Assembly (NCBI GenBank): GCA_022769485.1
Contig: JALEJU010000032.1
Location: 16,440-80,439 of the forward strand
Origin: Bacillota bacterium
GTDB lineage: Bacteria; Bacillota; Clostridia; Peptostreptococcales; Anaerovoracaceae
Length of the DNA stretch: 64,000 nt
Direction of reading: 5' to 3'
Each line of letters opens with the position of its first letter. Position 1 is the first letter of the stretch. The notes below the pieces were generated by a model, which was not told the DNA's origin, ran no database searches, and was given only the letters and a program-made list of their open reading frames with translations. A program made the translations under genes and the position numbers. This document shows, one piece after another, positions 32,471 through 51,643 of the stretch.

Positions 32471-32499
32471 GTTGCGGCAGATAAAAGGGAGGCGTAAAA

Positions 32500-33708: not shown

Positions 33709-33720
33709 GGAGGATTGGAT

Positions 33721-34431
33721 ATGTGGGAAAGGAACGATAAGGTTTTAGGTGTAATCGGCGGAATGGGGCCTTTGGCGACGCAGCTTTTTTACCGGCAGGT
33801 AATTGACAGGACTGTGGCTTGTCGGGATCAGGATCATATCGACATGATTCTTTTAAACCACGCTACTATGCCGGATCGAACGGCGGCCATTCTCAGCGGA
33901 AAAACGGAAGAGTTGTTCGCACTGCTGCTGACCGATGCAAAAAAGCTGGAAGCTCTGGGAGCCGTGGCCATCGCTATCCCCTGCAATACATCCCATTATT
34001 TTGTGCCCCGGCTGCAGGAGCAGCTGTCCATTCCCATTATTCACATGATTCGGGAGGCTGCGAAAGAAGTGGCATCCCGGGGGAAAGCGGAGCGTGTGGG
34101 AATTCTGGCTACAGACGGGACGATTCAAAGCGGAATGTACCAAAAAGCCTGCCGGGAGGCGGGGTTAACGCCTGTGGTTCCCACCAGAGAAAAACAGGCG
34201 TTGGTAATGAAGATCATTTATGACGGTGTAAAAAACGGCGGGACTATCGATTATAACGACTTTATTGCTGTCGAGGGAGATCTGGCGGCGCAGGGCTGTC
34301 AGGCGGCGATTCTGGCCTGTACGGAATTGTCGTGCTTTAAGGAAATGTATCATTTGCCGAATTATTATGTGGACGCAATGGAAGTTTTAGCAGTTCGTTC
34401 CATCGAGGCATGCGGAAAGAGAGTGAAGTAG
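33721..34431 (+). CDS. aspartate racemase (Asp/Glu/hydantoin racemase family)
   Basis: GVIGGMGPLAT, with the two catalytic cysteine regions IPCNTSH and LACTELS. GGGAGGA lies before ATG 33721. Confidence 0.85.
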   Translation: MWERNDKVLGVIGGMGPLATQLFYRQVIDRTVACRDQDHIDMILLNHATMPDRTAAILSGKTEELFALLLTDAKKLEALGAVAIAIPCNTSHYFVPRLQEQLSIPIIHMIREAAKEVASRGKAERVGILATDGTIQSGMYQKACREAGLTPVVPTREKQALVMKIIYDGVKNGGTIDYNDFIAVEGDLAAQGCQAAILACTELSCFKEMYHLPNYYVDAMEVLAVRSIEACGKRVK

Positions 34432-34436
34432 AGAAT

Positions 34437-35942
34437 ATGAAACTGAAGAAATATATTGATATGCTGGAGCGGGAAGATTTGCTGCGGGAAACGTCTTCCT
34501 GCGGGAAATGCGTAGAACAGGAAGTGGAATATCTTTCCTTTGATTCAAAGGACATGAGAGAAAACGGCCTTTTTGTCTGCAAGGGAGCGCATTTTAAACC
34601 GGAATACTTACAGGAAGCTTTAAACAGAGGCGCTTTCTGCTATTTAGCAGAGCAAGCCGTCCCCATAGAAGGAAACGTTCCTTTTGTATTGGTAACGGAT
34701 ATTCGGAAAGCTATGGCTCTTTTGGCAAATGCGTATTATAAAGAGGCGTGGAGAGAACTGAAAACCATCGGCATTACGGGAACAAAGGGAAAATCAACAA
34801 CGACGTATTATGTACGTTCGATTTTAGACAGTTATCTGGAATCCCAGGGAAAGCCAAAAAGTGCGGTTATCTCCGGAATTGACGTGTACGACGGCGTGAT
34901 CTGCGAGGAATCACATTTAACCACACCGGAGGCGATAGCCCTGCACCGGCATTTTCGCAATGCGGTGGATTCGGGGATTTCTTATGTGGAAATGGAGGTT
35001 TCCAGCCAGGCTCTCCGATATTACAGAACCTTGGGAATTCAATATGATGTGGGCTGTTTCCTGAATATCGGAACCGACCATATCAGCCCGATTGAGCATA
35101 AAGACTTCGATGATTATTTTGACGCCAAGCTGACACTGATGAAGCAGTGCAGGACGGCCTGCGTAAATCTCAATGCGGATCATTGTCAGGAGGTCTGCGA
35201 TACAGCCAGGGAACATGCGGATCTTTCCACATTCGGAACGGACGAGCGGGCGGATTACTATGCTCACCATATTGTGAAAACGGAGCGGGGAATCGCTTTT
35301 TCTGTGCGTATGGCTGCGAAAAACAGGAAACCGGAGCGAAATGAGAATTTTACGCTCAGTATGCCGGGGTTGTTCAATGTGGATAATGCGTTGGCCGCTA
35401 TCAGCATTTGCGATGCGCTGGATGTTCCCGTGCAGTATATGAAAGAGGGACTGGAAAAGGCCGCTGTTCCGGGGAGGATGGAAGTGTTCCGGGGGGGAGC
35501 GGGTTCTCCTACTGTAATCGTGGATTACGCCCATAACCGTATGAGCTTCGAAAAGTTGTTTACATCGGCGATTCGGGAATATCCGGACAAGAAAATTATA
35601 TCCATTTACGGCTGTCCTGGTAAAAAAGCGCAGGCAAGGCGTAAAGAGCTGGCTGAAATTGCCGGTCGCTATGCGGCAGTGGTTTATGTAACGGAGGAAG
35701 ACGCGGGGGAGGAACCTGTGGAATCCATCTGCAGGGAAATTGCAGCTAACCTGAGAGGGCTGCCCTGCCGCTGTGAGATCATCACGGATCGGGGAGAGGC
35801 CATCCGCAAAGCCATTGAAGAAAGCGGCGAGGATACGTTGATTCTTGTGACCGGAAAGGGGAGGGAAACACGGCAGAAGCGCGGTGTGGAGTACATCGAC
35901 TGTCCTTCCGATGTAGAGTATGTAGAACGTTATTTAAAATAG
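34437..35942 (+). CDS. murE: MurE-like UDP-N-acetylmuramoyl-tripeptide synthetase without the DNPR (meso-DAP) motif
   Basis: Mur-ligase P-loop GITGTKGKSTT, and DYAHN. At the position of the E. coli DNPR motif the sequence reads EDAG (35697-35708). Confidence 0.8.
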   Translation: MKLKKYIDMLEREDLLRETSSCGKCVEQEVEYLSFDSKDMRENGLFVCKGAHFKPEYLQEALNRGAFCYLAEQAVPIEGNVPFVLVTDIRKAMALLANAYYKEAWRELKTIGITGTKGKSTTTYYVRSILDSYLESQGKPKSAVISGIDVYDGVICEESHLTTPEAIALHRHFRNAVDSGISYVEMEVSSQALRYYRTLGIQYDVGCFLNIGTDHISPIEHKDFDDYFDAKLTLMKQCRTACVNLNADHCQEVCDTAREHADLSTFGTDERADYYAHHIVKTERGIAFSVRMAAKNRKPERNENFTLSMPGLFNVDNALAAISICDALDVPVQYMKEGLEKAAVPGRMEVFRGGAGSPTVIVDYAHNRMSFEKLFTSAIREYPDKKIISIYGCPGKKAQARRKELAEIAGRYAAVVYVTEEDAGEEPVESICREIAANLRGLPCRCEIITDRGEAIRKAIEESGEDTLILVTGKGRETRQKRGVEYIDCPSDVEYVERYLK

Positions 35943-37874: not shown

Positions 37875-37907
37875 AAAACCCGTCACTTTTTAAAAGCGGC
37901 GGGTTTT
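37875..37907. terminator. bidirectional terminator between convergent genes
   Basis: AAAACCCG (37875-37882) pairs with CGGGTTTT (37900-37907). Confidence 0.65.
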
Positions 37908-37918
37908 ATGTTTAACAG

Positions 37919-40384
37919 TTATTTTTTGACTTCCAGGTTCAATTCCTTGATCGCGTCCTCACGCATTTTATATTTCAGAATTTTCCCTGCGGCGTTCATG
38001 GGGAAGCTGTCGGTAAAGGAAATATAGCGGGGAATCTTGTGCTTCGCCATATTTTGACGAACGTAATCCTTGATTTCCTCTTCCGTTGCTGTTTCGCCTT
38101 TTTTCAGAATAATGCAGGCCATGATTTCTTCTCCGTATCCGGGATCCGGTACGCCGATAACCTGAACATCTTCAACCTTTGGATGGGTATAAAGGAATTC
38201 TTCGATTTCCTTGGGATAGATATTTTCGCCGCCGCGGATGATCATATCTTTTAAACGTCCTGTAATTCGGAAATTTCCTTCCGGGGTTCTGCAGGCCAGA
38301 TCTCCTGTATGCAGCCAGCCTTTCTCATCGATGGCGGCTGCAGTTGCGCCGGGCATTTTGTAATATCCTTTCATGATATTATACCCTCGGGCTATAAATT
38401 CTCCGTTTTCGCCGTCCGGCATTTCCAGACCGGTTTCCGGATCCACAATTTTACATTCGATTTCCGGAAGGGGACGCCCTACGGTACTGACCCGTACATC
38501 AATAGGGTCGTCGGTACTGCTCATGGTGCAGCCCGGGGACGCTTCCGTCTGCCCGTAAACGATGGTTATTTCCTTCATATTCATCTTTTCCTGCACATCC
38601 TGCATAACGGAGATGGGGCAGGGGCTTCCGGCCATAATCCCGGTTCGCATATGAGAGAAGTCAACACTGTTGAAATCCTTATGCTGGAGCATGGCGATAA
38701 ACATGGTCGGAACACCGTGGAAGCAGGTAATCCGTTCCTGATTGATACAGGTTAAAGCCGGCTTCGGCGAGAAATACGGCAACGGGGACAGCATAGCGCT
38801 GTGGGTCATAGCCGCGGTCATAGCCAGTACCATGCCGAAGCAGTGGAACATGGGAACCTGAATCATCATGCGATCCGCAGTAGATAAATCCATCCGGTCG
38901 CCAATGCATTTTCCGTTGTTGACTACGTTCCTGTGGGTCAGCATAACCCCTTTGGGGAAACCGGTGGTTCCGGAGGTATACTGCATATTGCATACGTCGT
39001 CCGGATGAACCTGAGCGGCTCTGCGCCATACTTCTTCCACGGGAACTTTCTGCCCAAAAGCCAGCGCCTCTTCCCAGGTGAGACAGCCTTTCTGTTTGGA
39101 AGAAACCGTAATAATGCGGCGAAGGAAGGGCAGGCGGCTGCAGTGCAGCGGCGCGTTGGAGTCGGCGGTTTCCAATTCCGGACAAAGCTCTTTAATGGCG
39201 CCGATATAGTCGGAATCCCTCCAGCCGTCTATCATGATCAGAACACGGGTATCCGATTGGCGAAGCAAGTATTCGGCTTCCCGGATTTTATATGCCGTAT
39301 TCATAGTAACTAATACCGCGCCCAATTTTACAGTAGCCCAGAAAGCGATATACCACTGAGGAACATTGGTAGCCCAAACAGCCACATGATCGCCTGCTTT
39401 TACGCCCAAAGCAATCAAAGAACGGGCAAACTGATCTACATCTTCCCGGAATTCTGCGTAAGTTCTGGTGTAATCCAGCGTGGTGTAACGGAAAGCGTAT
39501 TGATCCGGGAATTCTTCCACAAGACGGTCGAGAACCTGGGGGAACGTCAGAGAGATCAATTTATCTTTGGGCCAGATGAACCAGCCGTCGCCACGCTTAT
39601 TTTCGCAGAGGCGGCCTGCTTTTTTGTCTTTGCCCAGATACGTATTCATGTAATTTACATAATGGGGACAGATGATCTCCGGGTCGTTAAGCCCCATATT
39701 GTCTTTCTCCGGCCAGATCAGGGAAAGAAAGCCGCTGTAGCCGATGGAGTTAAGCGCACTGATCATATCGGCGAGGGGCAGCTCGCCGTCGCCGATGAGG
39801 CAGTCGTGCTTTTCACTTCCATGCCGGAAATCCCGGACATGAACGTGCTTAATATAAGCGCCCAGGTTTTTTACGGTTTCTTCCGCGCTTTCTCCTTTTA
39901 AATAAGGACCGCGGAGATTCCAGAGCGCCCCCAGCCAGTCGCTGGCGAATCGATCCAGAAGAGCGCTTAATTTGGATGTATCCGCATAAAGTCCGCGGGT
40001 TTCCATAAGCAGGATGGTATCTTCTTCCTCTGCAATGGGAATCAATTTTTCCAAAGCTTTAATGATTTCTTCTTCCTGCTGTCCCTCCTGCTTCGGAGCC
40101 GGAAGATGGACGTAAGGAATCTGCAGAGCGCCCGCCAGCATAACCGCAGATGCGGCGTCTTTAAAGTCAACAGCCGAGAGGCAGGGGACAGAGAGTTCCA
40201 TCTGATTCAGTTTTCGAATCAGGTTCTGGCTGTCCGCAATGGCGTAGGGACCTGTTAAGTAACGTTCTTTTGCGGCTTCCTGAAAGAGCAGTTCCACACC
40301 GGAAAAACCCATTTCTTTTGCCAGAGAAAAGTGTTCGGACCAGGAGTAACCGGGCCATCCATGATTTGAGTAACAGAGCTTCAT
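37919..40384 (-). CDS. fusion protein: xylose-isomerase-like TIM barrel (N, ~250 aa) plus AMP-forming acyl-CoA synthetase (C, ~560 aa)
   Basis: The N-terminal GFSGVEL...HVHVRD pattern fits sugar-phosphate isomerase/epimerase-like TIM barrels. The C-terminal part has YTSGTTGFPKGVMLTH, GYGQTE-like QTEASP, TGDL and the final KILK of the ANL superfamily. It is one continuous ORF. Confidence 0.8.
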   Translation of the reverse strand: MKLCYSNHGWPGYSWSEHFSLAKEMGFSGVELLFQEAAKERYLTGPYAIADSQNLIRKLNQMELSVPCLSAVDFKDAASAVMLAGALQIPYVHLPAPKQEGQQEEEIIKALEKLIPIAEEEDTILLMETRGLYADTSKLSALLDRFASDWLGALWNLRGPYLKGESAEETVKNLGAYIKHVHVRDFRHGSEKHDCLIGDGELPLADMISALNSIGYSGFLSLIWPEKDNMGLNDPEIICPHYVNYMNTYLGKDKKAGRLCENKRGDGWFIWPKDKLISLTFPQVLDRLVEEFPDQYAFRYTTLDYTRTYAEFREDVDQFARSLIALGVKAGDHVAVWATNVPQWYIAFWATVKLGAVLVTMNTAYKIREAEYLLRQSDTRVLIMIDGWRDSDYIGAIKELCPELETADSNAPLHCSRLPFLRRIITVSSKQKGCLTWEEALAFGQKVPVEEVWRRAAQVHPDDVCNMQYTSGTTGFPKGVMLTHRNVVNNGKCIGDRMDLSTADRMMIQVPMFHCFGMVLAMTAAMTHSAMLSPLPYFSPKPALTCINQERITCFHGVPTMFIAMLQHKDFNSVDFSHMRTGIMAGSPCPISVMQDVQEKMNMKEITIVYGQTEASPGCTMSSTDDPIDVRVSTVGRPLPEIECKIVDPETGLEMPDGENGEFIARGYNIMKGYYKMPGATAAAIDEKGWLHTGDLACRTPEGNFRITGRLKDMIIRGGENIYPKEIEEFLYTHPKVEDVQVIGVPDPGYGEEIMACIILKKGETATEEEIKDYVRQNMAKHKIPRYISFTDSFPMNAAGKILKYKMREDAIKELNLEVKK

Positions 40385-41820
40385 GATTCTTTTTCCTCAT
40401 ACACAATTTTGTTGACGGCGTTCAAATACGCGTTGATGCTGGCGCCTATAATATCAGTAGAGAGCCCGTGGCCGGAGTACAGTTTTCCATTGTGACGGAG
40501 CTTAACCAGCGCGTCGCCCATGGCTTCCCTGCCTTCGGTGACTGCCTGAATCTGGAAATCGTCCAGTTCGAAATGACGACCCAAAAGCTGTTCGATGGTA
40601 AGGAAGGCCGCGTCGATGGGGCCGTCCCCGGTGGAAACGGTTTGGCGTACTTCATCTTCCCGGTTAATTCTCACCTTTATGCAGGCGGTAGCCGCGATAG
40701 AATTCCCGCTGTTGATCACATAATGAACCAACTGGTAAGTAGGGGAAACCTGTTGGGTGCTCTCTGCGATGATCGCTTCCAGATCCCGATTATCCACTTT
40801 TTTCTTGGATGCCAGACGGTGGAATTGTCGGTAAACCTGCTCCAGATCCTTTTCTTCCAGATCGTATCCAAGCTTTTCCACCCTCCGGCGGATTACCAGC
40901 AGATCCGAATCCACGGTCAACTCTTCTTTTGCCAGGTTATCTTCTGTTTCGGGAGAACCCACCGTATGAGAAAACACGGATTTTCCGGTACGATTCATGC
41001 CCATCAGCCGTTCAATCTGCTTGCAGCTTCTTTGCAGGCCGGTAGCGTTTACTTCAAAACAGATACCCAGAGCGTCTTCCCGAACCCGAAGGGTATGGAT
41101 GAGCTCTTCTAAAGATAATGCGTTTCCGATCCCGCCGCAGGTTGTTTTTAAATGGGTGATTCCTGCGGAAACCGCGGACAGGGCGTTGGCAGTTGCCAGT
41201 CCCAGCTCATCTTTGCATTGGAAAGCCAGAGTAATATCGCTGCATTCCGGAACTTCTTTCCGCAGCTGAGATATCAGGTTCGTAATTTCCTGGGGGAGTA
41301 TTTCCCCGGCAGAGTCGCATAATGTTACGGTTTTTACTCCGCTTTTAATTGCTGCGGCTACTGCCTTATGCAGAAATTCACTTTCGCTTCTGGTAGCGTC
41401 TTCAGCAGAAAATTCCACGTCGGGGCAAAGGGAAACGCAGTAAGCGGACAGCTCTTCAATGCGTTCCAGCATAGCGGCCGGTTTTGTGTGGTGAACGTAT
41501 TCCATCTGAATTGCGGAAGTGGGAACAACCAGGTTGATTCTCGGATGTGCCGCTCCGGACAGCGCTTTCCAGGCTTTGTCGATGGCATCCCGATCCAGTC
41601 CTACCGGAACACAGAGTACGGAATTTTTTAAAAAACCGGCTATGGTGCGCACCGTAATGGTTCCCACCTGTTCGTCTTTAAGGAATCCGGTTTCGATCAC
41701 ATCCACATGAAGTTTTTCTAAAATCTTTGCAATTTCAATCTGTTCTTTAAAGCTCAAGCCGGAAGCAGAATCCAATTCTCTTTCCCGCAGAGTAATATCG
41801 GTAATACGAATTTTTTGCAC
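40381..41820 (-). CDS. 2-isopropylmalate synthase paralog with degenerate metal-binding residues and a retained LeuA-type C-terminal domain
   Basis: HMGL-like barrel (EFSAEDATR, DSAG) plus a LeuA_dimer-like C-terminus. The DTTLRDGEQ motif reads DITLRERE, and the HxHND motif reads QCKDE (41200-41220). It overlaps the downstream gene as ATGA. Confidence 0.75.
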   Translation of the reverse strand: MQKIRITDITLRERELDSASGLSFKEQIEIAKILEKLHVDVIETGFLKDEQVGTITVRTIAGFLKNSVLCVPVGLDRDAIDKAWKALSGAAHPRINLVVPTSAIQMEYVHHTKPAAMLERIEELSAYCVSLCPDVEFSAEDATRSESEFLHKAVAAAIKSGVKTVTLCDSAGEILPQEITNLISQLRKEVPECSDITLAFQCKDELGLATANALSAVSAGITHLKTTCGGIGNALSLEELIHTLRVREDALGICFEVNATGLQRSCKQIERLMGMNRTGKSVFSHTVGSPETEDNLAKEELTVDSDLLVIRRRVEKLGYDLEEKDLEQVYRQFHRLASKKKVDNRDLEAIIAESTQQVSPTYQLVHYVINSGNSIAATACIKVRINREDEVRQTVSTGDGPIDAAFLTIEQLLGRHFELDDFQIQAVTEGREAMGDALVKLRHNGKLYSGHGLSTDIIGASINAYLNAVNKIVYEEKES

Positions 41821-41836
41821 CGGGTAATCCTCCTTT

Positions 41837-42913
41837 TTATACGGTTACGGTCCATCCCATTTCATCTTTTACTGCGCCGGTCTGAATTCCGTAAAGCGTG
41901 TCATAAAGCTTCTGGGAAACAGGGCCGACTTCTCCTTCTCCGATTTCCAGTGACTGGCCTTTGTACACCAATCTGCCGATGGGGGAGATTACCGCAGCGG
42001 TTCCCGTCGCAAATACTTCCTGCAGCCGTCCTTCTTTTGCAGCTGTAAAAAGATCTTCCATAGAGAGACGTTCTTCCTTGACCGTATAACCCCAGTTTCT
42101 CAGGAGCTGCAGAACGGAATTTCTGGTAATGCCGGGTAAAATAGTGCCTGTCAAGGGAGCGGTGATGATCTCGTTATCGATCATAAAAAACGCATTGGAG
42201 GTTCCGATTTCTTCTACATATTTCTTTTCGATGGCATCCAGCCAGAGAACCTGCTCACAGCCGTTGGCATGGGCTTTCTCCTGCGCTTTCAGAGCACCCG
42301 CGTAGTTTCCGCCTACTTTTGCGTAGCCGGTTCCGCCGGGAACGGATCGAACGTATTCGTCTTCCACGAAAATGCTGTTGGCTACCAGACCGCCGTTGCT
42401 GCTTTCATAATAAGAGCCTACGGGGCTGAGAATGATCACAAAGAGATAGTGGTTGGAGGGTCTTACGCCTAAAAACGCCTCATCGCCGATGATAAAGGGG
42501 CGAATATAGAGAGCGGTTCCGGGCTGATCCGGAATCCAGTCCCGTTCCACATCTACCAGGGCCTTGATACAAGCGACATAAAGATCTTCATCCATCTGCG
42601 GCATGCACATGCGGTCGTTTGTGGCGTTGGTACGCTTTGCATTCATATCCGGACGGAACAGAAGAACTTTACCTTCCGCAGTTTTATATGCTTTCAGCCC
42701 TTCGAACATCTCTTGACCGTAATGGAAAACCACTGCGGCAGGATCCATCTGCAGGGGACCGTAAGGAACGATGCGGCCGTCATGCCAGCCTTTTTCTGTA
42801 TCATAATCCATCAGGAACATATGGTCGGTGAAAATTTTACCGAAACCAAGGGACTTCGGATCCGGTTTTTCTTTCGGAGTATCAGTGAGTGTTTTTTTGA
42901 ATTCGTAATTCAT
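41837..42913 (-). CDS. ilvE: branched-chain amino acid aminotransferase
   Basis: 358 aa, fold-type IV PLP enzyme pattern (FEGLKAY, GGTGYAKVGGNYA, GITR), as in long-form IlvE. Confidence 0.9.
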   Translation of the reverse strand: MNYEFKKTLTDTPKEKPDPKSLGFGKIFTDHMFLMDYDTEKGWHDGRIVPYGPLQMDPAAVVFHYGQEMFEGLKAYKTAEGKVLLFRPDMNAKRTNATNDRMCMPQMDEDLYVACIKALVDVERDWIPDQPGTALYIRPFIIGDEAFLGVRPSNHYLFVIILSPVGSYYESSNGGLVANSIFVEDEYVRSVPGGTGYAKVGGNYAGALKAQEKAHANGCEQVLWLDAIEKKYVEEIGTSNAFFMIDNEIITAPLTGTILPGITRNSVLQLLRNWGYTVKEERLSMEDLFTAAKEGRLQEVFATGTAAVISPIGRLVYKGQSLEIGEGEVGPVSQKLYDTLYGIQTGAVKDEMGWTVTV

Positions 42914-42929
42914 TTTTTACCTCCATTAT

Positions 42930-43463
42930 CTATTCACATTTGAATGCTTTGATCGCTCTGCGGTTCAAATCAAGGTGCTTTGCTTTCTTTCCGGAGAAGA
43001 CTTTCTGCAGGACGTATTCGATGGCTTCTTCCGATAAAATTTTGGTAGCGGATAAAATGGCTCCGAACATAACCATGTTGGCCGCCTTCGTATTTCCCAG
43101 TTCGTTTGCCAGTTCGCTGCAGGGAACTTTATAGATGGAAATATCTGACCGGATGGGTTCTGTCTGAACCAGAGACTGGTTGATAAACAGATTTCCGCCG
43201 GGTTTAACCAAGCGTTCAAAGCTTTGCAGAGACGGTTGATTCATAGCGATCACGGTGTCTGCCTCGTAAATCATGGGGCAGTTGATTTTTTCATCGGATA
43301 CGATTACGGTGCAGTTGGCCGTGCCTCCCCGCATCTCGGGACCGTAGGAAGGCATAAAGGTAACTTCTTTGTTATCATACATACCGCCGTATGCCAGCAT
43401 TTGTCCCATAAGCAGGATGCCCTGGCCGCCGGCACCGGCGAAAAAGAATTTATTCGTACTCAT
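42930..43463 (-). CDS. 2-oxoacid:ferredoxin oxidoreductase, gamma subunit
   Basis: FAGAGGQGILLMG and SYGPEMRGG motifs. Confidence 0.85.
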   Translation of the reverse strand: MSTNKFFFAGAGGQGILLMGQMLAYGGMYDNKEVTFMPSYGPEMRGGTANCTVIVSDEKINCPMIYEADTVIAMNQPSLQSFERLVKPGGNLFINQSLVQTEPIRSDISIYKVPCSELANELGNTKAANMVMFGAILSATKILSEEAIEYVLQKVFSGKKAKHLDLNRRAIKAFKCE

Positions 43464-43464
43464 A

Positions 43465-44208
43465 TTAGTCCTCCTCCGGTGTTCTGAAATTGCCTAACGG
43501 ATAATAAGGAATCATTTCATCTCTCATCCACTGTAAAGCGTCTGCGGGTGTTTTGCCCCAGTTGGTCGGACAGGAAGAAAGGAATTCCACAAATGTAAAG
43601 CCCAAACCTTTTTCCTGAATTTCCAGCGCTTTCATAACGGCCTTTTTGGCTTGCCGAACGTGAGCGGGGGTATCCAGAGAAACCCGTTCTACGAATACCG
43701 CACCTTCCAGCGTGGCGATCAGCTCGGATACGCGGATGGGAGCGCCAGCCTGTTCTTTTGTGCGTCCGTTGACGGAAGTGGTAGAGCGCTGTCCCAGCAG
43801 GGTGGTGGGAGCCATCTGGCCGCCGGTCATACCGTAGATACAGTTGTTGATAAAAAATGTAGTAAAGTGTTCGCCTCTTGCTGCGGCGTGGATGATTTCC
43901 GCCATACCGATGGAAGCCAGGTCGCCGTCGCCCTGGTATGTGAAAACGATGCGGTCAGGCTGTGCCCGGCGGATGCCGCTGGCAACAGCGGGAGCTCTGC
44001 CGTGAGCCGCTTCGCACATATCTATATTCATAAATTGATGAGCCAGTACACTGCATCCGATTGGTGCAACGCCGATGGTGTCGCCTAATTTTCCTTTTTC
44101 CTCAAGACATTCCATAATCAGGCGATGGGCAATGCCGTGGGTGCAGCCGGGGCAGTAACTTGTGGAAACGGGAAGCATTCCCTTTGTATAAGTAAATACC
44201 GGTTTCAT
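43465..44208 (-). CDS. 2-oxoacid:ferredoxin oxidoreductase, beta (TPP-binding) subunit
   Basis: CPGCTHG, GDGD and NNCIYGMTGGQ motifs. Confidence 0.9.
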   Translation of the reverse strand: MKPVFTYTKGMLPVSTSYCPGCTHGIAHRLIMECLEEKGKLGDTIGVAPIGCSVLAHQFMNIDMCEAAHGRAPAVASGIRRAQPDRIVFTYQGDGDLASIGMAEIIHAAARGEHFTTFFINNCIYGMTGGQMAPTTLLGQRSTTSVNGRTKEQAGAPIRVSELIATLEGAVFVERVSLDTPAHVRQAKKAVMKALEIQEKGLGFTFVEFLSSCPTNWGKTPADALQWMRDEMIPYYPLGNFRTPEED

Positions 44209-45284
44209 TTTAATCCCTCCAAAATCTTCTTCGCTTTTTCTGCAACTTCCAGGGAAGTGGGAATGATGCCGCCGGTTCTGTGAATCAGTTCAACCGGGAA
44301 TCGTCCGCACACGCCCATTTTTACGTCCTGGAGCATCTGTCCCATAGATAATTCCGCTGAAATGACGACTTTCGTTTTGCTTTCAATCCGGTCAAATGCT
44401 TCGTACGGGAAGGGCCACAGAGAAATGGGACGGATCATGCCTGCTTTGATTCCTTCTTTTGCTAAGAGCTCTATAACCTCGTGAATCAGACGAGCCATGG
44501 TTCCAAAGGCAGTGAATACGATGTCCGCATCTTCTAAGCCGATGCATTCGTAACGAACCAGTTCTTTTTCAGCTTGTGCATACTTTTCATACAGCTTTTC
44601 CACATGAACTTCCAGGTCTTCCGGTTTTAAACGGAGGGATTTTACCACGCTGCGGTTTTCTTTGTAGCCGCTGCCGCTGGCCGCCCAGGGTTTTACTTTG
44701 GGAACATCGCCGGGGAGAAGGGGGGCTTTGGGTTCGGGAAGAACGACAGGCTCCATCATCTGTCCCATAATACCGTCGGCGAGAATCATAACAGGGTTTC
44801 TCCAATAGTCTGCCATAGAGGGTGCTTCGTAGAGAATATCCACGGCTTCCTGGATTGTGGAAGGCGCGAAAACCGGAATCCGGTAGTCGCCGTTTCCGCC
44901 GCCTCTGGTAACCTGAAAATAGTCTGCTTGTCCGGGCTGGATGCCGCCGATTCCCGGACCGCAGCGGGATACGTTCAAAAGTACCGCCGGAACTTCTGCG
45001 GAAGCCAGAAAGCTCATTCCTTCCTGCATGAGGGCAATACCGGGAGAGGAAGAGGAAATAAAACAGCTTCCTCCTGCGGCTCCGCAGCCGTAGGCCATAT
45101 TGATTGCTCCCAGTTCACTTTCCGCTTGCAGGAACGTTCCGCCTCTTTCGGCCAGTTCCCTGGACATATATTCGGGAATTTCACTCTGAGGGGTAATCGG
45201 GTAGCCGAAATAATAACGGCAGCCGCCTCGGATGACTGCTTCTGCGAAAGCTTCGTTTCCTTTCATTAATACCTTTTCTGCCAT
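44205..45284 (-). CDS. 2-oxoacid:ferredoxin oxidoreductase, alpha subunit
   Basis: GNEAFAEAVIRGGCRYYFGYPITPQSEI is the typical N-terminus. It overlaps the beta-subunit gene by 4 nt. Confidence 0.9.
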   Translation of the reverse strand: MAEKVLMKGNEAFAEAVIRGGCRYYFGYPITPQSEIPEYMSRELAERGGTFLQAESELGAINMAYGCGAAGGSCFISSSSPGIALMQEGMSFLASAEVPAVLLNVSRCGPGIGGIQPGQADYFQVTRGGGNGDYRIPVFAPSTIQEAVDILYEAPSMADYWRNPVMILADGIMGQMMEPVVLPEPKAPLLPGDVPKVKPWAASGSGYKENRSVVKSLRLKPEDLEVHVEKLYEKYAQAEKELVRYECIGLEDADIVFTAFGTMARLIHEVIELLAKEGIKAGMIRPISLWPFPYEAFDRIESKTKVVISAELSMGQMLQDVKMGVCGRFPVELIHRTGGIIPTSLEVAEKAKKILEGLK

Positions 45285-45502
45285 TATGCTTCCTCCTCAA
45301 AAATTTCAATCGCGCCATCGGGGCACATTACAGCGCAGCTGGTGCAGCCGACGCATTCTTCCTGCCGCTCCACAGACGCGGGGAAATATCCTTTGCCGTT
45401 AACGTGGGAACCCATGACGATCAGGTCTTTGGGGCAAACTGTTTTGCACAGTTCACAGCCTTTGCATTTGTCCGCATCAATGCGAACCACATATTTTGCC
45501 AT
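45284..45502 (-). CDS. 2-oxoacid:ferredoxin oxidoreductase, delta (2x[4Fe-4S] ferredoxin) subunit
   Basis: Two cysteine clusters, CKGCELCKTVCP and CVGCTSCAVMCP. ATG 45502 is preceded by AAAGGAG. It overlaps the alpha-subunit gene start. Confidence 0.85.
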   Translation of the reverse strand: MAKYVVRIDADKCKGCELCKTVCPKDLIVMGSHVNGKGYFPASVERQEECVGCTSCAVMCPDGAIEIFEEEA

Positions 45503-45559
45503 TAGTGATGCTCCTTTCAAATCGTAACAATAGTTCTATATTAATTGAATTTAATCTGC

Positions 45560-46282
45560 TTATTTGTCCAGCCATTCCGGGCGCATATATAATTGAAGCG
45601 GAAAAATCAATGTGTCCAAAAATTCCAGCTCCTGCGCAGAGACCAGAGGTTCCGGAAACGTATCACAGATAATGGGTTTTCCGGTTTTTTCGGAAAGCGC
45701 TTTGCAGAGTTCATGTCCTTTTTTTATATCCTCCGCTGTGGTTTCCCGAAGCAGGTGTGTATTGTTGATCAGACCTTTTACCTCTGTTTCCAGTTCTGTT
45801 TCGATGGCGTACAGGTGTTTTAAAGCACCGTTTAAATTTCTGGTTTCCGGGCGGTTTCGGTTAATGACGGTCAGAAGGATGGATTCTTCTGTTTGAAAAT
45901 ACTTTCGAAATTGCTTCAGTACCCGAGCGCCGCTGTCGTTTCCGCCGATATCCAGAATCGCGCAGCAGTCGGGATTTTCTAAAGGCGTCCGGATGGATGC
46001 GGACAGAGCGGGAAGCTCTGCTGTGATTTCTCCCCGGTACGCACTTCCGAATACCTGAATCCCGCTGGCCTCCAGAATTTCCGTACGTTCCCGGGAGCGG
46101 AAATAAGGATTTGCAACGTCTAAGTCTACTAAAGAGACTTCCTTAAAAGGACAGTGCATTTCATCGTTTTTTAATGCCAGAGCCAGATTGACCGCAAACT
46201 CTGTTTTTCCGCTACCGTAATGTCCGGTTATGACAATAATTCTCTTTTTCGTGTCAAAGAGATAGGGCATAGGCTGTTTCAT
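45560..46282 (-). CDS. P-loop NTPase (MinD/ParA/CooC-like), first gene of the oxidoreductase operon
   Basis: Walker A ITGHYGSGKTEF, followed by DLD and DIGGND patterns. I recognise no specific family. Confidence 0.6.
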   Translation of the reverse strand: MKQPMPYLFDTKKRIIVITGHYGSGKTEFAVNLALALKNDEMHCPFKEVSLVDLDVANPYFRSRERTEILEASGIQVFGSAYRGEITAELPALSASIRTPLENPDCCAILDIGGNDSGARVLKQFRKYFQTEESILLTVINRNRPETRNLNGALKHLYAIETELETEVKGLINNTHLLRETTAEDIKKGHELCKALSEKTGKPIICDTFPEPLVSAQELEFLDTLIFPLQLYMRPEWLDK

Positions 46283-46325
46283 AAAATATCCTTTCAGCGC
46301 GGCTCAAATTTCTCTCACCGTTCAT

Positions 46326-46360
46326 TTATAAAAGAAACCCCGCTCACTAAGAACGGGGTT
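46326..46360 (-). terminator. intrinsic terminator / candidate attenuator between the leader ORF and the operon
   Basis: On the minus strand, AACCCCG pairs with CGGGGTT around an 11-nt loop and is followed by TCTTTTAT. It ends about 45 nt before the first operon ATG, and I see no promoter in between. Confidence 0.55.
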
Positions 46361-46383
46361 GTGCTTACAACTATGATTATAAA

Positions 46384-46536
46384 CTAACAATTGCCTATTC
46401 TCAGTGTACCTGTGTTTTCATCAGATTTAGCTGCCAGCAGAATGCTAAGCAACAGAACCAGACCCAGCAATACAACGATTGCAGGGCTAATCAGCAGATC
46501 CAGGTTGTTGAGAACATGCATATAAGTTTTCATCAT
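46384..46536 (-). CDS. unannotated 50-codon ORF rich in Leu/Ile/Val (MMKTYMHVLNNLDLLISPAIVVLLGLVLLLSILLAAKSDENTGTLRIGNC); leader-peptide candidate
   Basis: The ORF runs from ATG 46536 to TAG 46384-46386, downstream of a minus-strand promoter and upstream of the terminator. By my count 22 of its 50 residues are L, I or V. The RBS is weak. Confidence 0.4.
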   Translation of the reverse strand: MMKTYMHVLNNLDLLISPAIVVLLGLVLLLSILLAAKSDENTGTLRIGNC

Positions 46537-46606
46537 TTTAATCTCAATTTCCTTTTCGTACGGTAAACAGCCTCCTTCTCAGCGGCTGCATAATTATCAC
46601 GCAAGT

Positions 46607-46634
46607 AGAATACCAAGAAAATTTAAGGTTGTCA
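46607..46634 (-). promoter_or_regulatory. candidate sigma-A promoter for the minus-strand leader and operon
   Basis: On the minus strand: TTGACA (46634-46629), a 16-nt spacer, then TATTCT (46612-46607). Confidence 0.5.
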
Positions 46635-46675
46635 AGTAGATTGTTGAAGGAAACAAAAAAATATAAAAAAAATTG

Positions 46676-46711: not shown

Positions 46712-46990
46712 GTAACTTAATAGAAACAAAGGCTGTGACGAAGACGGTTGAATTTTTTCGTTTCCAGAGAGTCGGCGGGCGCTGTGAGCCGATAATGAGA
46801 AAATTCGGGAACCTATCCCTTCCGAGCCGGGAGCCCGAACTCGCAGGAAAGTAGACGCTCTCCGTAATCGCTGCGTAAAAGCGAAAGGCTTGATAGAGCC
46901 TGTGAGGTGGTATGCTTTGCATGCAATTTGAGTGGTACCGCGGATTGTCAGATTCGTCTCAAAGAAAAAAATTCTTTGGGGCGTTTTTTT
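46712..46990 (+). promoter_or_regulatory. T-box riboswitch leader (Stem I, AGTA box, F-box-like element, T-box core, terminator)
   Basis: GA/K-turn motif (GUGA at 46734-46737 with GA at 46824-46825). AG bulge AGAGAG at 46766-46771 with a distal loop ending GUGA. AGTA at 46850-46853 and CCGTAATCG at 46862-46870. T-box core AATTTGAGTGGTACCGCGG at 46925-46943. A 12-bp terminator spans 46955-46983, followed by seven T. Confidence 0.85.
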
Positions 46991-47014: not shown

Positions 47015-49282
47015 ATGCAGCAGACAAATGAAATAAGTATGTTACGCGACGTAGCGGCCAGAATCCAGGAACTGAGAGAAATCTCCGGATATACCGCAGA
47101 GGAGATGGCGCAGAAAACCGATGTGAGCGCAGAGCAGTACAAAAGTTATGAAAGCGGAAATGTGGATATTCCGTTTACCTTTATTCATAAGTGCGCGCTT
47201 TGCTTCGGGGTGGAAATTTCCGACTTGATGGAAGGAACCAGCGCTCATTTAACATCTTATACGGTTACGAGAAAGGGAGCAGGTCAGATTACCGCCAGGG
47301 AAGAGGGAATTGAAATTCGAAATCTGGCTACCATGTTCCATAAAAAGATAGCGGAGCCGTATTGGGTAAAATATGAATATTCCGTTGAGCAGCAGTCGAA
47401 GCCCATTCATTTAACGACGCACAAAGGGCAGGAATTTGACTTTGTCCTGAGCGGACAATTAAAAGTGCAGGTAGGCACTCATACGGAAATCCTGTCCGAG
47501 GGCGACAGCATCTACTACGACAGCGCTACGCCTCACGGCATGATCGCTGTAGGCGGAGAAGACTGCGTGTTCTGCGCGGTGGTTCTTTCCGGCGAAGAAA
47601 ACGAAGAAAATCAGATGGGTGAAACAATCGTAGCGGCAAAGCAGACGGAGCATCTGATTTATGAAAACTTTATCCTGCCTCTCGAAGATGAAAACGGCGC
47701 ATTGCAGTCCATCGGGTTCCACAATGAAGATAAATTTAATTTTGCGTTTGACGTTGTAGATGAGCTGGCAAAGAAAAAGCCCAATAAGCTGGCCATGATC
47801 CATCTGGATAAGAACAAGAAGGAACGAAGATTTACTTTTGACGAAATCAGAAAGGCGTCTAACCGTACGGCAAACTATTTTAAGTCCATGGGGATTCAAC
47901 GAGGTGACTGCGTTATGCTGGTCTTAAAACGGCATTATCAGTTCTGGTTTGCCATATTGGCACTTCATAAGATCGGAGCGATTGCGGTGCCTGCGCCCAA
48001 CCAGCTTTTAACAAAGGATTTTGAATACCGTTTCCAATCGGCCGGAATCAAAGCCATCGTCTGCACGGCGGACGGCCAGACGGCGGAGTGCATAGACGAA
48101 GCGCAGCTTACATCTCCCAGCCTTGAATTGAAAGTCATGGTGGGCGGAAATCGACCCGGATGGCGGAACTTTGACGAAGAGTATCTGATGTACAGCGGAA
48201 AATTCGACAGAAGTGAGGACTGTCCCTGCGGCGACGATCCCATGGTTATGTTCTTCAGCTCCGGCACCACGGGTTATCCGAAGATGGCACAGCATAGCTA
48301 TAAATATCCGTTGGGACATTTCGTTACGGCGAAATACTGGCATTGCGTGGATCCCCACGGGCTGCACCTGACCATTTCCGATACAGGCTGGGGAAAATCT
48401 CTTTGGGGCAAGCTGTACGGGCAGTGGATGTGCGAAGCGGCAATTTTCGTGTATGACTTTGATCGCTTTGATGCCAACGATATCCTGCCGCTGTTCAAGC
48501 AGTATAAGATAACAACATTCTGCGCGCCGCCTACTATGTACCGCTTTATGATCAAAGAAGATCTGTCCCGGTTTGACCTGTCCAGTATCCGGCATGCCAC
48601 TACGGCAGGCGAGGCGCTGAATCCGGAAGTATATCATCAATTTAAAAAGGCGACGGGACTTTCTGTTATGGAAGGATTCGGTCAGACGGAAACCACTTTG
48701 CTGATCGGCAATCTGGTCGGCGATACGCCGAAAATCGGTTCCATGGGAAAAGCAAATCCGCTGTTTGATGTAGAGCTTATGACTTCTGACGGAAAACTGG
48801 CCGAAGTGGGAGAAACGGGCGAGATTGTAGTTCGGACGAAGGAAAATCTGCCTGTGGGTATTTTCCTGGGATACTACAGGGATGAGGAAAAGACGAGAGC
48901 ATCCTGGCATGATGGCTATTATCATACGGGAGATACGGCCTGGAAAGACGAGGACGGTTATTTCTGGTATGTAGGCCGGGTAGACGATTTGATCAAATCC
49001 TCCGGATACCGGATCGGGCCCTTCGAAATCGAAAGCGTTATCATGGAGCTTCCTTATGTGTTGGAATGCGGCGTATCGGCTGCCCCGGATGAGATCAGAG
49101 GGCAGGTCGTAAAGGCCAGCATCGTCTTGGTAAAAGGCAAGGAAGGTACGGAAGAATTAAAGAAAGAAATCCAAAACTATGTAAAGAAACGGACGGCCCC
49201 GTATAAGTATCCCAGAATCGTTGTGTTCAGGGACGAGCTGCCTAAGACGATCAGTGGAAAAATCCAGAGAAACAAATTATAA
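47015..49282 (+). CDS. fusion protein: XRE-type HTH plus cupin plus AMP-forming (medium-chain-like) acyl-CoA synthetase
   Basis: N-terminal HTH (ISGYTAEEMAQKTDVSAEQYKSYESG). A cupin (GQEFDFVLSGQLKVQVG...YYDSATPHG). Then ANL motifs (FFSSGTTGYPK, GFGQTE, YHTGD, and SGKIQR at the end). Confidence 0.8.
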   Translation: MQQTNEISMLRDVAARIQELREISGYTAEEMAQKTDVSAEQYKSYESGNVDIPFTFIHKCALCFGVEISDLMEGTSAHLTSYTVTRKGAGQITAREEGIEIRNLATMFHKKIAEPYWVKYEYSVEQQSKPIHLTTHKGQEFDFVLSGQLKVQVGTHTEILSEGDSIYYDSATPHGMIAVGGEDCVFCAVVLSGEENEENQMGETIVAAKQTEHLIYENFILPLEDENGALQSIGFHNEDKFNFAFDVVDELAKKKPNKLAMIHLDKNKKERRFTFDEIRKASNRTANYFKSMGIQRGDCVMLVLKRHYQFWFAILALHKIGAIAVPAPNQLLTKDFEYRFQSAGIKAIVCTADGQTAECIDEAQLTSPSLELKVMVGGNRPGWRNFDEEYLMYSGKFDRSEDCPCGDDPMVMFFSSGTTGYPKMAQHSYKYPLGHFVTAKYWHCVDPHGLHLTISDTGWGKSLWGKLYGQWMCEAAIFVYDFDRFDANDILPLFKQYKITTFCAPPTMYRFMIKEDLSRFDLSSIRHATTAGEALNPEVYHQFKKATGLSVMEGFGQTETTLLIGNLVGDTPKIGSMGKANPLFDVELMTSDGKLAEVGETGEIVVRTKENLPVGIFLGYYRDEEKTRASWHDGYYHTGDTAWKDEDGYFWYVGRVDDLIKSSGYRIGPFEIESVIMELPYVLECGVSAAPDEIRGQVVKASIVLVKGKEGTEELKKEIQNYVKKRTAPYKYPRIVVFRDELPKTISGKIQRNKL

Positions 49283-49312: not shown

Positions 49313-49338
49313 AACGGCGGAATCTTTCCGCCGTTTTT
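49313..49338 (+). terminator. intrinsic terminator separating the T-box-controlled gene from metY
   Basis: AACGGCGGAA pairs with TTCCGCCGTT around a 3-nt loop and runs into TTTTT. Confidence 0.8.
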
Positions 49339-49416
49339 CCTTCTGCTGTCATGGCTTTTCTCTTGTATATATGCTATTATAAAAGAACAATGTATGTTGC
49401 AGAAAGGGTAAAATTT

Positions 49417-50694
49417 ATGGAAAGACAGAAAATAGAAACGATTTGCATACAGGAAGGATATAAGCCGGGGAACGGTGAACCGAGAATTCTTCCCATTTAT
49501 CAGAGTACAACCTATAAATATGATTCTGCGGATCATTTAGGCAAGCTGTTTGATTTGGAAGTGCCGGGACATATGTATACGAGAATTTCCAATCCTACGG
49601 TGGAATATGTGGAGCAGAAAATCGCCGCGCTGGAAGGCGGGGTGGGCGCTATGTGCACCTCTTCCGGTCAGGCGGCCAATCTCGTGGCCGTTATGAATAT
49701 TGCCGGCTGCGGTGATAACATCATTTCGCTGTCTTCCATTTACGGAGGAACAATAAACCTGTTTGCGGTAACTATGAAACGTTTCGGAATCGACGTTCGC
49801 TTTGTGAATCCGGACATGACGGATGAAGAGATTGAGCCGTTTTTTGATGAGAATACAAAGGCTGTTTTCGGGGAAACCATTGCAAATCCGGCGCTGAAAG
49901 TATTGGATATCGAGCGTTATGCAAACTTAGCGCACAAACATAATGTTCCTCTTTTGGTGGACAACACATTCGCCACTCCGGTTTTGTGCAGACCTTTTGA
50001 ATTCGGTGCGGATATCGTGATTCATTCTACTACAAAATATATGGACGGGCATGCCAGCGTAGTGGGCGGCGCAGTCGTTGACAGCGGTAATTTTGACTGG
50101 GAAGCAGCGGGCGGTTTTCCGGGGCTGACGGAACCGGACGAATCGTATCACGGTGTGGTTTATACAAGAGATTTCGGAAAAGCCGCTTATATCAGCAAGG
50201 CGCGCTGTCAGCTTATGCGGGATTTGGGCACAACACCTCAGCCCATCGCTGCTTTTATTTTAAATCAGGGACTGGAAACATTGGCACTGCGGATGGAACG
50301 CCATTGTGAAAACGCTATGCAGGTTGCGGAGTATCTGGAGAAGCATGAAAAGATTTCCTGGGTAAATTATCCGAAACTGCCCGGCTCCGACCAATATGAA
50401 CTGGCGGAAAAATATCTGCCCAAAGGCGCCTGCGGCGTAATTTCTTTCGGCGTAAAAGGCGGAAGAGAGGCAGCGGTAAAGTTTATGGACTCTCTGAAGC
50501 TTGCGCAGATTGTGGTGCACGTTGCGGACGCAAGAACCAGCGTGCTGCATCCGGCCAGCACCACACACCGCCAATTAACGGATGAGCAGCTGAAGGATGC
50601 CGGAATCGGCGCAGATCTGGTTCGTCTGTCCGTGGGGATCGAACATATTTCAGATATACTTGCGGATTTAGAACAGGCTCTGAACCAATTGTAG
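49417..50694 (+). CDS. metY: O-acetylhomoserine sulfhydrylase (aminocarboxypropyltransferase)
   Basis: Cys/Met-metabolism PLP enzyme with the PLP lysine in [10 protein letters not shown]. Its length and N-terminus (ETICIQEGY) are typical of MetY. The start is at ATG 49417. Confidence 0.85.
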
Positions 50695-50728
50695 TTTTTA
50701 TCGTAAAAGAGAAAGAGGGGGCTTAACT

Positions 50729-51643
50729 GTGCCGATTAAAATTCCCAGCGGACTTCCCGCAGAAGCCACGCTGAAACAAGAGAAAATTTTTGTTATGGAC
50801 GAAGCCAGAGCGCTGTCTCAGGATATTCGTCCTTTGCGCATTGCGGTTCTGAATCTCATGCCTACAAAAATTGCCACGGAAACACAAATTGCCAGGCTGA
50901 TCGGCAATACGCCGCTGCAGTTGGAACTGGAGCTGATTTATACCCAAAGCCATCAGGCGAAAAACATTCCTCTGGAACATTTGCTGGCGTTCTACAAAAC
51001 GTTTGATGAGATAAAGGATCAAAAGTTCGACGGCTTGATTATCACAGGGGCGCCGGTGGAAAAATTGGAATTTGAAGATGTGGATTACTGGCCGGAACTC
51101 TGTGAAATTATGGAATGGTCGAAAACTCATGTGTTCAGTACCTTCCATATCTGCTGGGGCGCACAGGCGGGAATGTATTATCATTTCGGCATTCACAAAT
51201 ATTTGTTGGATGAAAAGCTGTTCGGAGTCTATCCCCATGAAGTGGAAGCGCAGAATGCTGTATTATTCCGCGGCTTTGATGATACGTTTATGGTTCCTCA
51301 GTCGCGGCATACAACCGTGAAACGGGAAGAGATTGAAGCTGTTTCGGATTTGTGGATTTTGGCGTCTTCAAAGGAAGCAGGGGTTTATGCGGTAGCTTCG
51401 CCCCGTTACAAGCAGGTGTTTATTACCGGGCACTCCGAATATGACAGAGAGACACTGGAGAAGGAGTATCTGAGGGATAAAAAAGCGGGACTTCCTATTT
51501 CTGTTCCCGTAAATTATTATCCCAATGATGATGATACGCAAAGACCGATTATGAGCTGGAAAGGGCACGCGCATCTGCTGTATTCCAATTGGCTGAACTA
51601 CGTTTATCAGGAAACACCTTACAATTTGGATGAAATCCAATAG
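50729..51643 (+). CDS. metA: homoserine O-acyltransferase (MetA family)
   Basis: [11 protein letters not shown]...[10 protein letters not shown]...[10 protein letters not shown]...HICWGAQA are hallmark MetA motifs. The start codon is GTG. Confidence 0.9.

Follow-up and report, generated by a model that had tools for sequence, protein, structure and literature searches.

A conserved gene cluster in gut and rumen Clostridia as the probable core of a salvage route from branched short-chain acids to leucine, isoleucine and valine

The DNA analysed here, hereafter the window, is a 64,000-nt stretch of contig JALEJU010000032.1 from a Bacillota bacterium, and it contains a cluster of eight minus-strand genes that brings together a 2-oxoacid:ferredoxin oxidoreductase, a branched-chain amino acid aminotransferase, a relative of isopropylmalate synthase (IPMS) and an acyl-CoA synthetase. 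The cluster starts with the gene for a P-loop NTPase (45560-46282; 240 aa, with a weak match to CbiA/ParA in Pfam). The four oxidoreductase subunits, with their Pfam domains, are the delta subunit (45284-45520; 78 aa, two Fer4 domains), the alpha subunit of the VorB type (44205-45284; 359 aa, POR_N and PFOR_II), the beta subunit, which binds thiamine diphosphate (43465-44208; 247 aa, TPP_enzyme_C), and the gamma subunit (42930-43463; 177 aa, POR, E 8.5e-39). The last three genes encode a type II IlvE aminotransferase (41837-42913; 358 aa, Aminotran_4), a pseudo-isopropylmalate synthase that we call dIPMS (40381-41820; 479 aa, HMGL-like and LeuA_dimer), and a fusion protein that we call TIM-ACS, in which a xylose-isomerase-like TIM barrel is joined to an AMP-forming acyl-CoA synthetase (37919-40384; 821 aa, AP_endonuc_2, AMP-binding and AMP-binding_C). 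The genes overlap by 1 nt at 45284 and by 4 nt at 44205-44208 and 40381-40384, the beta and gamma genes are 1 nt apart, and the remaining gaps are 16, 16 and 39 nt. An open reading frame (ORF) check returned the coordinates and junctions that the original prediction had given for eight packed genes, and the Pfam and NCBIfam domain assignments matched the gene content that it had proposed. A terminator hairpin closes the operon (37875-37907, minus strand; fold z-score -4.2).

Divergent from the operon lies a second acyl-CoA synthetase gene (47015-49282, plus strand), whose 755-aa product joins a helix-turn-helix (HTH) domain, a cupin domain and the AMP-binding and AMP-binding_C domains according to Pfam and is referred to as the HTH-cupin-ligase. 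It had been predicted to be under T-box control, and a T-box leader of Rfam family RF00230 indeed precedes it (46726-46964, plus strand), with the isoleucine specifier AUC at 46815-46817, the core AGUGGUACCGCG at 46931 and, downstream of the core, a terminator at 46955-46983. The leader was found by a permissive Rfam scan as a full-length match (E 3.9e-19; 87.3 bits vs. a gathering score of 93) and was missed by the default scan. A terminator-like hairpin, read from the sequence, follows the ligase gene (49313-49335, plus strand).

The alpha subunit assigns the oxidoreductase to the VorB subfamily. It scores 465.3 bits against the NCBIfam model NF005507, “3-methyl-2-oxobutanoate dehydrogenase subunit VorB”, which has a cut-off of 399, and falls far short of the models for 2-oxoglutarate (KOR, NF007206; 195 vs. 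579), pyruvate (PorA; 90 vs. 550) and indolepyruvate (IOR; 57 vs. 651) oxidoreductases. The profile libraries thus agree with the branched-chain role that had been predicted for the enzyme. The archaeal catabolic model for 2-oxoisovalerate:ferredoxin oxidoreductase (VOR), NF006232, gives 67 bits against a cut-off of 646, and the nearest solved relative is the alpha subunit of a 2-ketoacid:ferredoxin oxidoreductase from Pyrococcus (1YD7). The beta subunit contains the GDGD...NN thiamine-diphosphate motif and the CxxC cluster cysteines, and the delta subunit has two CxxCxxCxxxCP motifs, as in a ferredoxin with two [4Fe-4S] clusters. IlvE is above the cut-offs of two equivalog models (NF009897, 486.7 vs. 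307; TIGR01123, 398.3 vs. 250).

The P-loop protein is a divergent SIMIBI-class NTPase with the Walker A sequence GHYGSGKT, from a family of more than 5300 cluster representatives. Its gene always precedes that of the delta subunit, also at loci that lack dIPMS. A Foldseek search with its AlphaFold2 model gave only generic matches to the SRP/Get3/NifH/MinD fold, with a TM-score of about 0.5. We considered that it might donate electrons at the expense of ATP, as NifH does, or carry Fe-S clusters in the manner of Mrp, and rejected both, since a broad alignment contains no invariant cysteine and the fold is only generically SIMIBI.

The IPMS relative had been described as dead-looking, and this is borne out residue by residue. 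In the alignment to solved IPMS structures, the TLRDGEQ motif is replaced by TLRERELD, the HxHxDxG motif by QCKDELG, so that HxH reads QxK, and the SHESGIH segment, which bears the catalytic histidine, by SHTVGSP. The protein accordingly lacks the metal ligands (the aspartate of RDGEQ and both histidines of HxH) and the catalytic histidine. These losses are universal among 18 members of the dIPMS family with 50-70% identity. In the alignment of the 18 proteins, 45 of the 140 positions in the LeuA_dimer regulatory domain are invariant vs. 30 of the 290 positions in the barrel. The regulatory domain covers nearly the whole Pfam profile (E 7.7e-34), and the substrate-binding Arg12 and the EDATRS motif are retained. 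All LeuA equivalog cut-offs in NCBIfam are missed, the best scores being 368.9 vs. 532 and 337.8 vs. 598.7. The AlphaFold model (mean pLDDT 80) superimposes in Foldseek on the Listeria IPMS barrel 3EWB with a TM-score of 0.95 at 1.4 Å, and it aligns to full-length LeuA from M. tuberculosis, including the leucine-bound form, over about 540 columns. When the regulatory domain by itself was searched against PDB sequences, there was no match. The fold and the allosteric domain of dIPMS are held under selection and the Claisen chemistry has been lost.

TIM-ACS carries the motifs YTSGTTGFPKGV (SGTTGxPKG type) and AAGKILK, with the C-terminal catalytic lysine, in its ligase part. The TIM barrel in most family members keeps the Glu/Asp/His/Asp/Glu set that is typical of metal-dependent xylose-isomerase-like barrels, with D156 present in 57, E223 in 61 and D185 in all of 69 proteins; the first glutamate of the set is replaced by lysine in 17 of the 69. 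The TIM domain in the window (39560-40384, minus strand) has Asn156, Gly159 and Ile223 where most members have aspartate, histidine and glutamate. Used by itself as the query for homologues, the TIM domain gave three matches, and an apparent stand-alone copy of the domain was rejected as a frameshifted long-read assembly.

The original prediction had asked whether the association of these genes is conserved in Clostridia, and the dIPMS cluster does recur, both in Oscillospirales and in other Clostridia. In a pattern scan with one genome for each species, at least 587 genomes contained a dIPMS relative, most of them gut or rumen Oscillospirales (Acutalibacteraceae, Oscillospiraceae, Faecousia, Sporobacter, Papillibacter, Pelethousia). 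We further surveyed 83 dIPMS loci by tblastn, named L001 and onwards. TIM-ACS directly follows dIPMS in all 77 loci with room for it. The P-loop and oxidoreductase genes are present in the same locus in 35 of the 83, either upstream in the same orientation, which is the arrangement of the window (8 loci), downstream on the same strand (20 loci), or on the opposite strand (7 loci). The dIPMS/TIM-ACS pair is fused into an oxidoreductase/IlvE operon in 28 loci; another 37 are too short for the presence of the oxidoreductase to be judged. All eight genes are found again in this order in Sporobacter termitidis DSM 10068 (L001) and in two complete genomes. IlvE is usually present, and is absent from a relative of the window operon with 70% identity. 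In L001, L003 and L008 the aminotransferase has 341 aa and is only 34-38% identical to that of the window, compared to 57-68% in most other loci, and looks like a non-orthologous replacement within the cluster. Five contigs with dIPMS and TIM-ACS (L052, L053, L076, L045 and L025) come from metagenome-assembled genomes labelled as Bacteroidales/Salinivirgaceae, Abditibacteriota or Synergistaceae, which could reflect mis-binning or horizontal transfer.

T-box leaders were located by searching all surveyed loci for the T-box core sequence, and the triplet at the specifier position was read. All 35 parsed leaders of dIPMS genes have a leucine codon (CUC in 25, CUG in 10), and another seven that the script failed to parse read CUC by eye. 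The leaders of HTH-cupin-ligase genes have either the isoleucine codon AUC (27 leaders, including that of the window) or the valine codons GUA or GUC (10 leaders). The locus L038 contains three leaders, whose specifiers read CUG, AUC and GUC when the leaders are aligned to the Rfam covariance model; two of these leaders score above the RF00230 threshold (120.3 and 115.9 bits), and the triplets obtained in this manner are consistent also for the leaders of the window and L005. In L038-type loci and in L042, the P-loop gene and those for the oxidoreductase and IlvE come directly after a valine T-box and its ligase gene. T-box leaders activate expression in response to uncharged cognate tRNA, a mechanism that is established for genes for aminoacyl-tRNA synthetases, biosynthesis and transport. 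The Leu, Ile and Val T-boxes in the relatives therefore imply induction upon shortage rather than excess, which agrees with the starvation control that had been predicted, and since induction follows uncharged tRNA, an anabolic role is favoured over a catabolic one.

Further T-boxes occur elsewhere in the surveyed loci. In the loci closest to the window, L005 (about 14191, plus strand) and L006 (about 14169, plus strand), a valine (GUC) T-box lies directly downstream of TIM-ACS, and the one in L006 precedes the gene for a Macs-type ligase of 547 aa without the HTH-cupin module. The corresponding position in the window is occupied by a convergent gene for an SLH-domain glycosidase, with no ligase for the valine branch. 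In L069 (about 6732, minus strand) and L027 (about 8564, minus strand), a T-box precedes a gene for a FadD-like acyl-CoA synthetase of 545 aa, divergent from the dIPMS operon; the specifier in L069 parses as threonine (ACG). This synthetase might represent a further acid-salvage branch, for example from propionate to 2-oxobutyrate.

The HTH-cupin-ligase of the window contains the motifs SSGTTGYPKM and SGKI, and its ligase part aligns end to end with the acyl-CoA synthetase Macs from M. acetivorans (PDB 3ETC; E 2.5e-190, 637 bits). Its best NCBIfam model is the equivalog MbcS (NF047394), with 433.9 bits vs. a cut-off of 850, so that by sequence it is a relative of MbcS and not its equivalog. 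A neighbour-joining tree of 34 full-length HTH-cupin-ligases separates a clade of 23 Ile-linked proteins from a clade of 11 Val-linked ones, with zero exceptions. The T-box codon and the protein phylogeny thus agree, and the proteins therefore form two orthologous groups of ligases, each tied to one amino acid. A single position in the ligase N-domain is specific to the clades, namely residue 460 in the motif TGW[G/A]K, which is glycine in the Ile type, as in Macs, and alanine in the Val type. The Val-T-box ligase that lacks the HTH-cupin part likewise has alanine at this site. We take position 460 to correspond to Val310 in the acyl pocket of acetyl-CoA synthetase; given this presumed mapping, the smaller side chain would be combined with the larger acid, as expected. 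We infer that the ligase of the window, as a member of the Ile clade, is a 2-methylbutyrate ligase.

Macs uses 2-methylbutyrate (PMC10455477), and MbcS from S. aureus selectively activates 2-methylbutyrate and isobutyrate but acts poorly on isovalerate (PMC10026030). The latter would explain why a separate ligase family serves the leucine branch, and the data fit a division of labour in which alpha-branched acids are activated by Macs/MbcS-type ligases and the beta-branched isovalerate by another family. The suggestion that the ligases prefer short branched acids is in line with this kinship for the second ligase; for TIM-ACS, the assignment as the isovalerate-activating ligase of the leucine branch is deduced solely from the Leu T-box. 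The HTH-cupin module may be a counterpart sensor for isoleucine or valine that regulates the divergent operon. A search for an operator of the HTH domain, made in the regions between the divergent genes of the window and of L005, L006 and L088, found no common palindrome or k-mer beyond the T-box.

The leader of the window operon is of a different kind. Upstream of the P-loop gene there is an ORF of 50 codons (46384-46536, minus strand), 21 of which encode leucine, isoleucine or valine and whose product has one hydrophobic segment, and 24 nt after its stop codon there is an intrinsic-terminator hairpin (46336-46360, minus strand) with 10 bp, 6 G-C pairs and a T-rich tail, located 54 nt before the P-loop gene. 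The two nearest loci, L005 and L006, have comparable small hydrophobic ORFs with good ribosome-binding sites in this position, and the terminator hairpin and its loop are also conserved in them. The leader ORF and terminator noted in the original prediction are therefore both present, but an attenuator function could not be demonstrated for them. The leader of the window and those of L005 and L006 were folded with and without the 3' arm of the terminator; once this arm was removed, the 5' arm was unpaired or weakly paired, and no antiterminator was found. Classical ilv/leu-type attenuation was rejected, as folding revealed no mutually exclusive antiterminator in these three leaders. The small ORF is a candidate for a leader peptide or a small membrane peptide. 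Only one promoter-like site had been reported upstream of the operon, and the minus strand contains two: one at 46635-46607, a consensus match only (TTGACA, a 17-nt spacer, TATTCT and a TG extension), and a second consensus match at 46404-46376. The region contains 12 promoter-like matches compared to 10.0 +/- 3.2 in shuffled sequence; being no more common than in the shuffles, they carry little weight.

Rfam searches upstream of the P-loop gene (on the operon strand in the window, and in L001 and L005) identified no known RNA families, and some lineages show no recognisable leader. Sporobacter-type loci contain a conserved element of about 140 nt at this position, which has its own promoter-like site and ends in a terminator (4654-4795 in L001, 5101-5241 in L003, 5192-5330 in L004 and 5142-5281 in L008). 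All four copies share the exact 24-mer CCAATGGCATGAGGATGCCGCAGG. The predicted fold is multi-stemmed with an internal hairpin, based on four sequences and without covariation support, and the L001 copy had no match in a permissive Rfam scan. The element could be a new cis-regulatory RNA for the operon.

Taken as a whole, we consider it probable that the cluster is the core of a salvage route that converts isovalerate, 2-methylbutyrate and isobutyrate into leucine, isoleucine and valine, respectively. This was the interpretation in the original prediction, which is supported and extended by the VorB score, the conserved cluster, the T-boxes and the ligase kinship. In such a route, an AMP-forming ligase would turn the branched acid into its CoA thioester, the four-subunit VorB-type oxidoreductase would reductively carboxylate the thioester to the 2-oxoacid with reduced ferredoxin, and IlvE would form the amino acid from the 2-oxoacid by transamination. 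Three branches would share the oxidoreductase and IlvE, one oxidoreductase presumably accepting all three acyl-CoAs, and the ligases would be branch-specific. The dIPMS/TIM-ACS pair would serve the leucine branch from isovalerate, the divergent HTH-cupin-ligase at 47015-49282 the isoleucine branch from 2-methylbutyrate, and its sister clade, absent from the window, the valine branch from isobutyrate. The anabolic direction of the flux is suggested because Leu, Ile and Val T-boxes precede the three ligases and, in some genomes, the oxidoreductase and IlvE. Expression would follow shortage of the end product, since in most relatives each ligase gene is placed behind the matching Leu, Ile or Val T-box; in the window, only the Ile ligase has a T-box and the eight-gene operon is preceded by the small hydrophobic ORF and the terminator.

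What dIPMS does in such a route is a matter for a more tentative proposal. It might be a partner of the isovalerate ligase that has no catalytic function, senses leucine and throttles the ligase, an idea that we regard with some doubt. A role as a leucine sensor is proposed because the LeuA allosteric domain is its best-conserved part, a partnership with the ligase because the gene is translationally coupled to that of the ligase, and feedback on the ligase because the ATP-costly first step is the expected point of control. Extended to all branches, it is possible, though less likely than not, that a complete alternative, feedback-wired pathway to the three amino acids is widespread in gut and rumen Oscillospirales, in which each of three T-box-induced ligases has its own end-product sensor: dIPMS would bind leucine and shut down the isovalerate ligase, and the HTH-cupin module of the Ile and Val ligases would double as a transcription factor for the oxidoreductase operon that the branches share. 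Such a pathway might be the genetic basis of the long-known requirement for branched-chain volatile fatty acids in fibre-degrading rumen Firmicutes.

Other explanations for the cluster start from the same genes. The ligases might salvage the acids as acyl-CoA starters for the fatty acid synthesis of branched-chain membrane lipids, with the oxidoreductase and IlvE working oxidatively in place of a branched-chain ketoacid dehydrogenase to produce these starters from amino acids as well. The HTH-cupin-ligase resembles MbcS and Macs, and MbcS feeds FabH with primers for branched fatty acids in S. aureus (PMC10026030); a shortage of isoleucine or valine also cuts the supply of primers, which would reconcile T-box control of only the ligases with this explanation, and the acyl-CoAs could serve both ends. 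However, the oxidoreductase and IlvE genes themselves lie behind a Val T-box in L038-type loci and L042, where breakdown of valine during valine shortage would be senseless. The leucine branch moreover bears a protein built on the leucine-feedback domain of LeuA, and IlvE has been recruited to the cluster repeatedly, including the non-orthologous form in L001, L003 and L008. We therefore consider the supply of lipid primers unlikely to be the function of the cluster. Still further from the evidence is a catabolic pathway of the Stickland type, in which IlvE and the oxidoreductase would degrade leucine, isoleucine and valine to acyl-CoAs and the ligases would run in reverse for energy. The superfamily of the oxidoreductase is reversible, with many characterised members being catabolic, and AMP-forming ligases are reversible in principle. 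Yet T-box induction means that the amino acid is scarce, the genes annotated by Pfam and NCBIfam in the cluster include no phosphotransacylase/kinase, CoA-transferase or ADP-forming synthetase, and the archaeal catabolic VOR model NF006232 is a poor match for the alpha subunit (67 vs. 646). Taken together, a catabolic role is highly improbable.

A different possibility is that dIPMS and TIM-ACS perform chemistry of their own with new catalytic residues, in a leucine-related pathway that is only loosely linked to the oxidoreductase. This would account for the retention of the xylose-isomerase-like barrel residues in most TIM domains (with D156, E223 and D185 at the frequencies given above) and of Arg12 and EDATRS in dIPMS, and for the 11 loci with long flanks in which the pair stands alone behind a Leu T-box. 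Against it, the three metal ligands and the catalytic histidine of dIPMS have been lost family-wide, the metal site of the TIM domain is not strictly constrained, given the lysine in place of the first glutamate in 17 of 69 proteins and the loss of three positions in the clade of the window, and the pair is part of an oxidoreductase/IlvE operon in 28 loci. Independent chemistry of the pair thus appears rather improbable.

Several observations speak against the salvage route itself, or against parts of it. The name VorB is a subfamily label that is silent on the direction of the reaction, and the beta, gamma and delta subunits score below every NCBIfam cut-off. TIM-ACS has no characterised close relative, its best model being PRK12583 with 693 bits vs. 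a cut-off of 832. The metal site of the TIM domain, kept in most members and degraded in the lineage of the window, is at odds with a role that is only catalytic as well as with one that is only structural. The roles of dIPMS and of the TIM domain are conjectural, and the same is true of the role of the P-loop protein in the cluster. In the 11 loci with at least 8 kb of flanking sequence on each side, there is no oxidoreductase near dIPMS. As for the regulation, the T-box in the window is just below the Rfam gathering threshold, the eight-gene operon of the window has neither a T-box nor an antiterminator in its leader, and no T-box at all was found in the lineages of L009, L015 and L018.

The other genes in the window are those of an ordinary chromosome of a spore-forming Firmicute, including SpoIVA, Der, GpsA, ClpB and SLH-domain proteins. 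Downstream of the Ile-branch ligase (49351-51643, plus strand) are genes for an O-acetylhomoserine sulfhydrylase and a homoserine O-acetyltransferase (MetA, acetyl type), for which neither a SAM riboswitch nor a Met T-box was detected. Co-transcription of these metY and metA genes with the Ile ligase gene was rejected, as the hairpin at 49313-49335 stands between them. On the same strand, at 31364-35942, there is a row of genes for an alanine-racemase-like protein, a protein without a Pfam match, an Asp/Glu racemase and a Mur-ligase-family protein, which may be a cluster for a D-amino-acid peptide or for cell-wall modification. The only Rfam match in the window at the gathering threshold is a tRNA gene (60467-60551, plus strand).

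With a gene set recognisable by its sequence and with RNAs that name the amino acid of each branch, auxotrophy predictions for hundreds of uncultured Oscillospirales could be corrected. Such a set would also help to interpret how branched acids are cross-fed in the gut and rumen, and it would open an old physiological question to direct knockout, labelling and enzyme tests. In addition, dIPMS provides a clean example of a biosynthetic enzyme that has become a conserved pseudoenzyme, keeping only its allosteric domain.

That anaerobes of the rumen and gut can use isovalerate, 2-methylbutyrate and isobutyrate to make leucine, isoleucine and valine has been known since the 1960s, and these acids are a requirement of several fibre degraders; to our knowledge, the genes behind the conversion have been poorly defined. 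An anabolic VOR is known from methanogens, and labelling reportedly demonstrated that such rumen and gut organisms carboxylate branched acids reductively (Allison and co-workers; Tersteegen et al. 1997). The system described here would share with these the conversion of acyl-CoA, CO2 and reduced ferredoxin to a 2-oxoacid, followed by transamination, and its alpha subunit belongs to the VorB subfamily. It differs from the methanogen VOR in being a bacterial enzyme of four subunits with a P-loop NTPase as its obligatory partner, in its clustering with IlvE and dedicated ligases, and in its T-box control; we know of no description of these features for the methanogen enzymes or the rumen isolates. 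In Prevotella, the reverse reaction was stated to be “not proven” in a study from 2020 (PMC7709123).

The individual components can be compared in the same manner. The HTH-cupin-ligase is similar to MbcS and Macs in its full-length alignment with 3ETC and in having MbcS as its best NCBIfam model, but it differs by its N-terminal HTH and cupin domains, by the Ile/Val T-box control seen in its family, and by its location next to an oxidoreductase rather than in a context of lipid synthesis. The dIPMS protein has the two-domain architecture and the fold of LeuA but not its metal ligands and catalytic histidine, and its gene is always coupled to that of an acyl-CoA ligase, not to leuBCD. Genuine leuA is controlled by a Leu T-box in other bacteria (PMC2494555). 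The leaders are canonical for Firmicutes T-box regulons, with the AGAGA motif, specifier loop, T-box core and terminator, whereas the targets, acyl-CoA ligases, a pseudoenzyme and a ferredoxin oxidoreductase, are absent from the openly readable comparative T-box studies. As in BirA, an adenylate-forming enzyme is joined to a helix-turn-helix domain, and by analogy the HTH-cupin-ligase could couple catalysis to the control of transcription; it differs in that its HTH domain is of the XRE type and combined with a cupin, and in that no operator was found. The original prediction had stated that no dedicated, regulated operon had been defined for this conversion, and our literature search likewise turned up no description of the operon, of T-box control of its genes, of the pseudo-IPMS or of the fusions. 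In comparison with the known systems, the bacterial gene set, the T-box control, the pseudo-IPMS and the fusions appear to be new here, and the chemistry itself is old.

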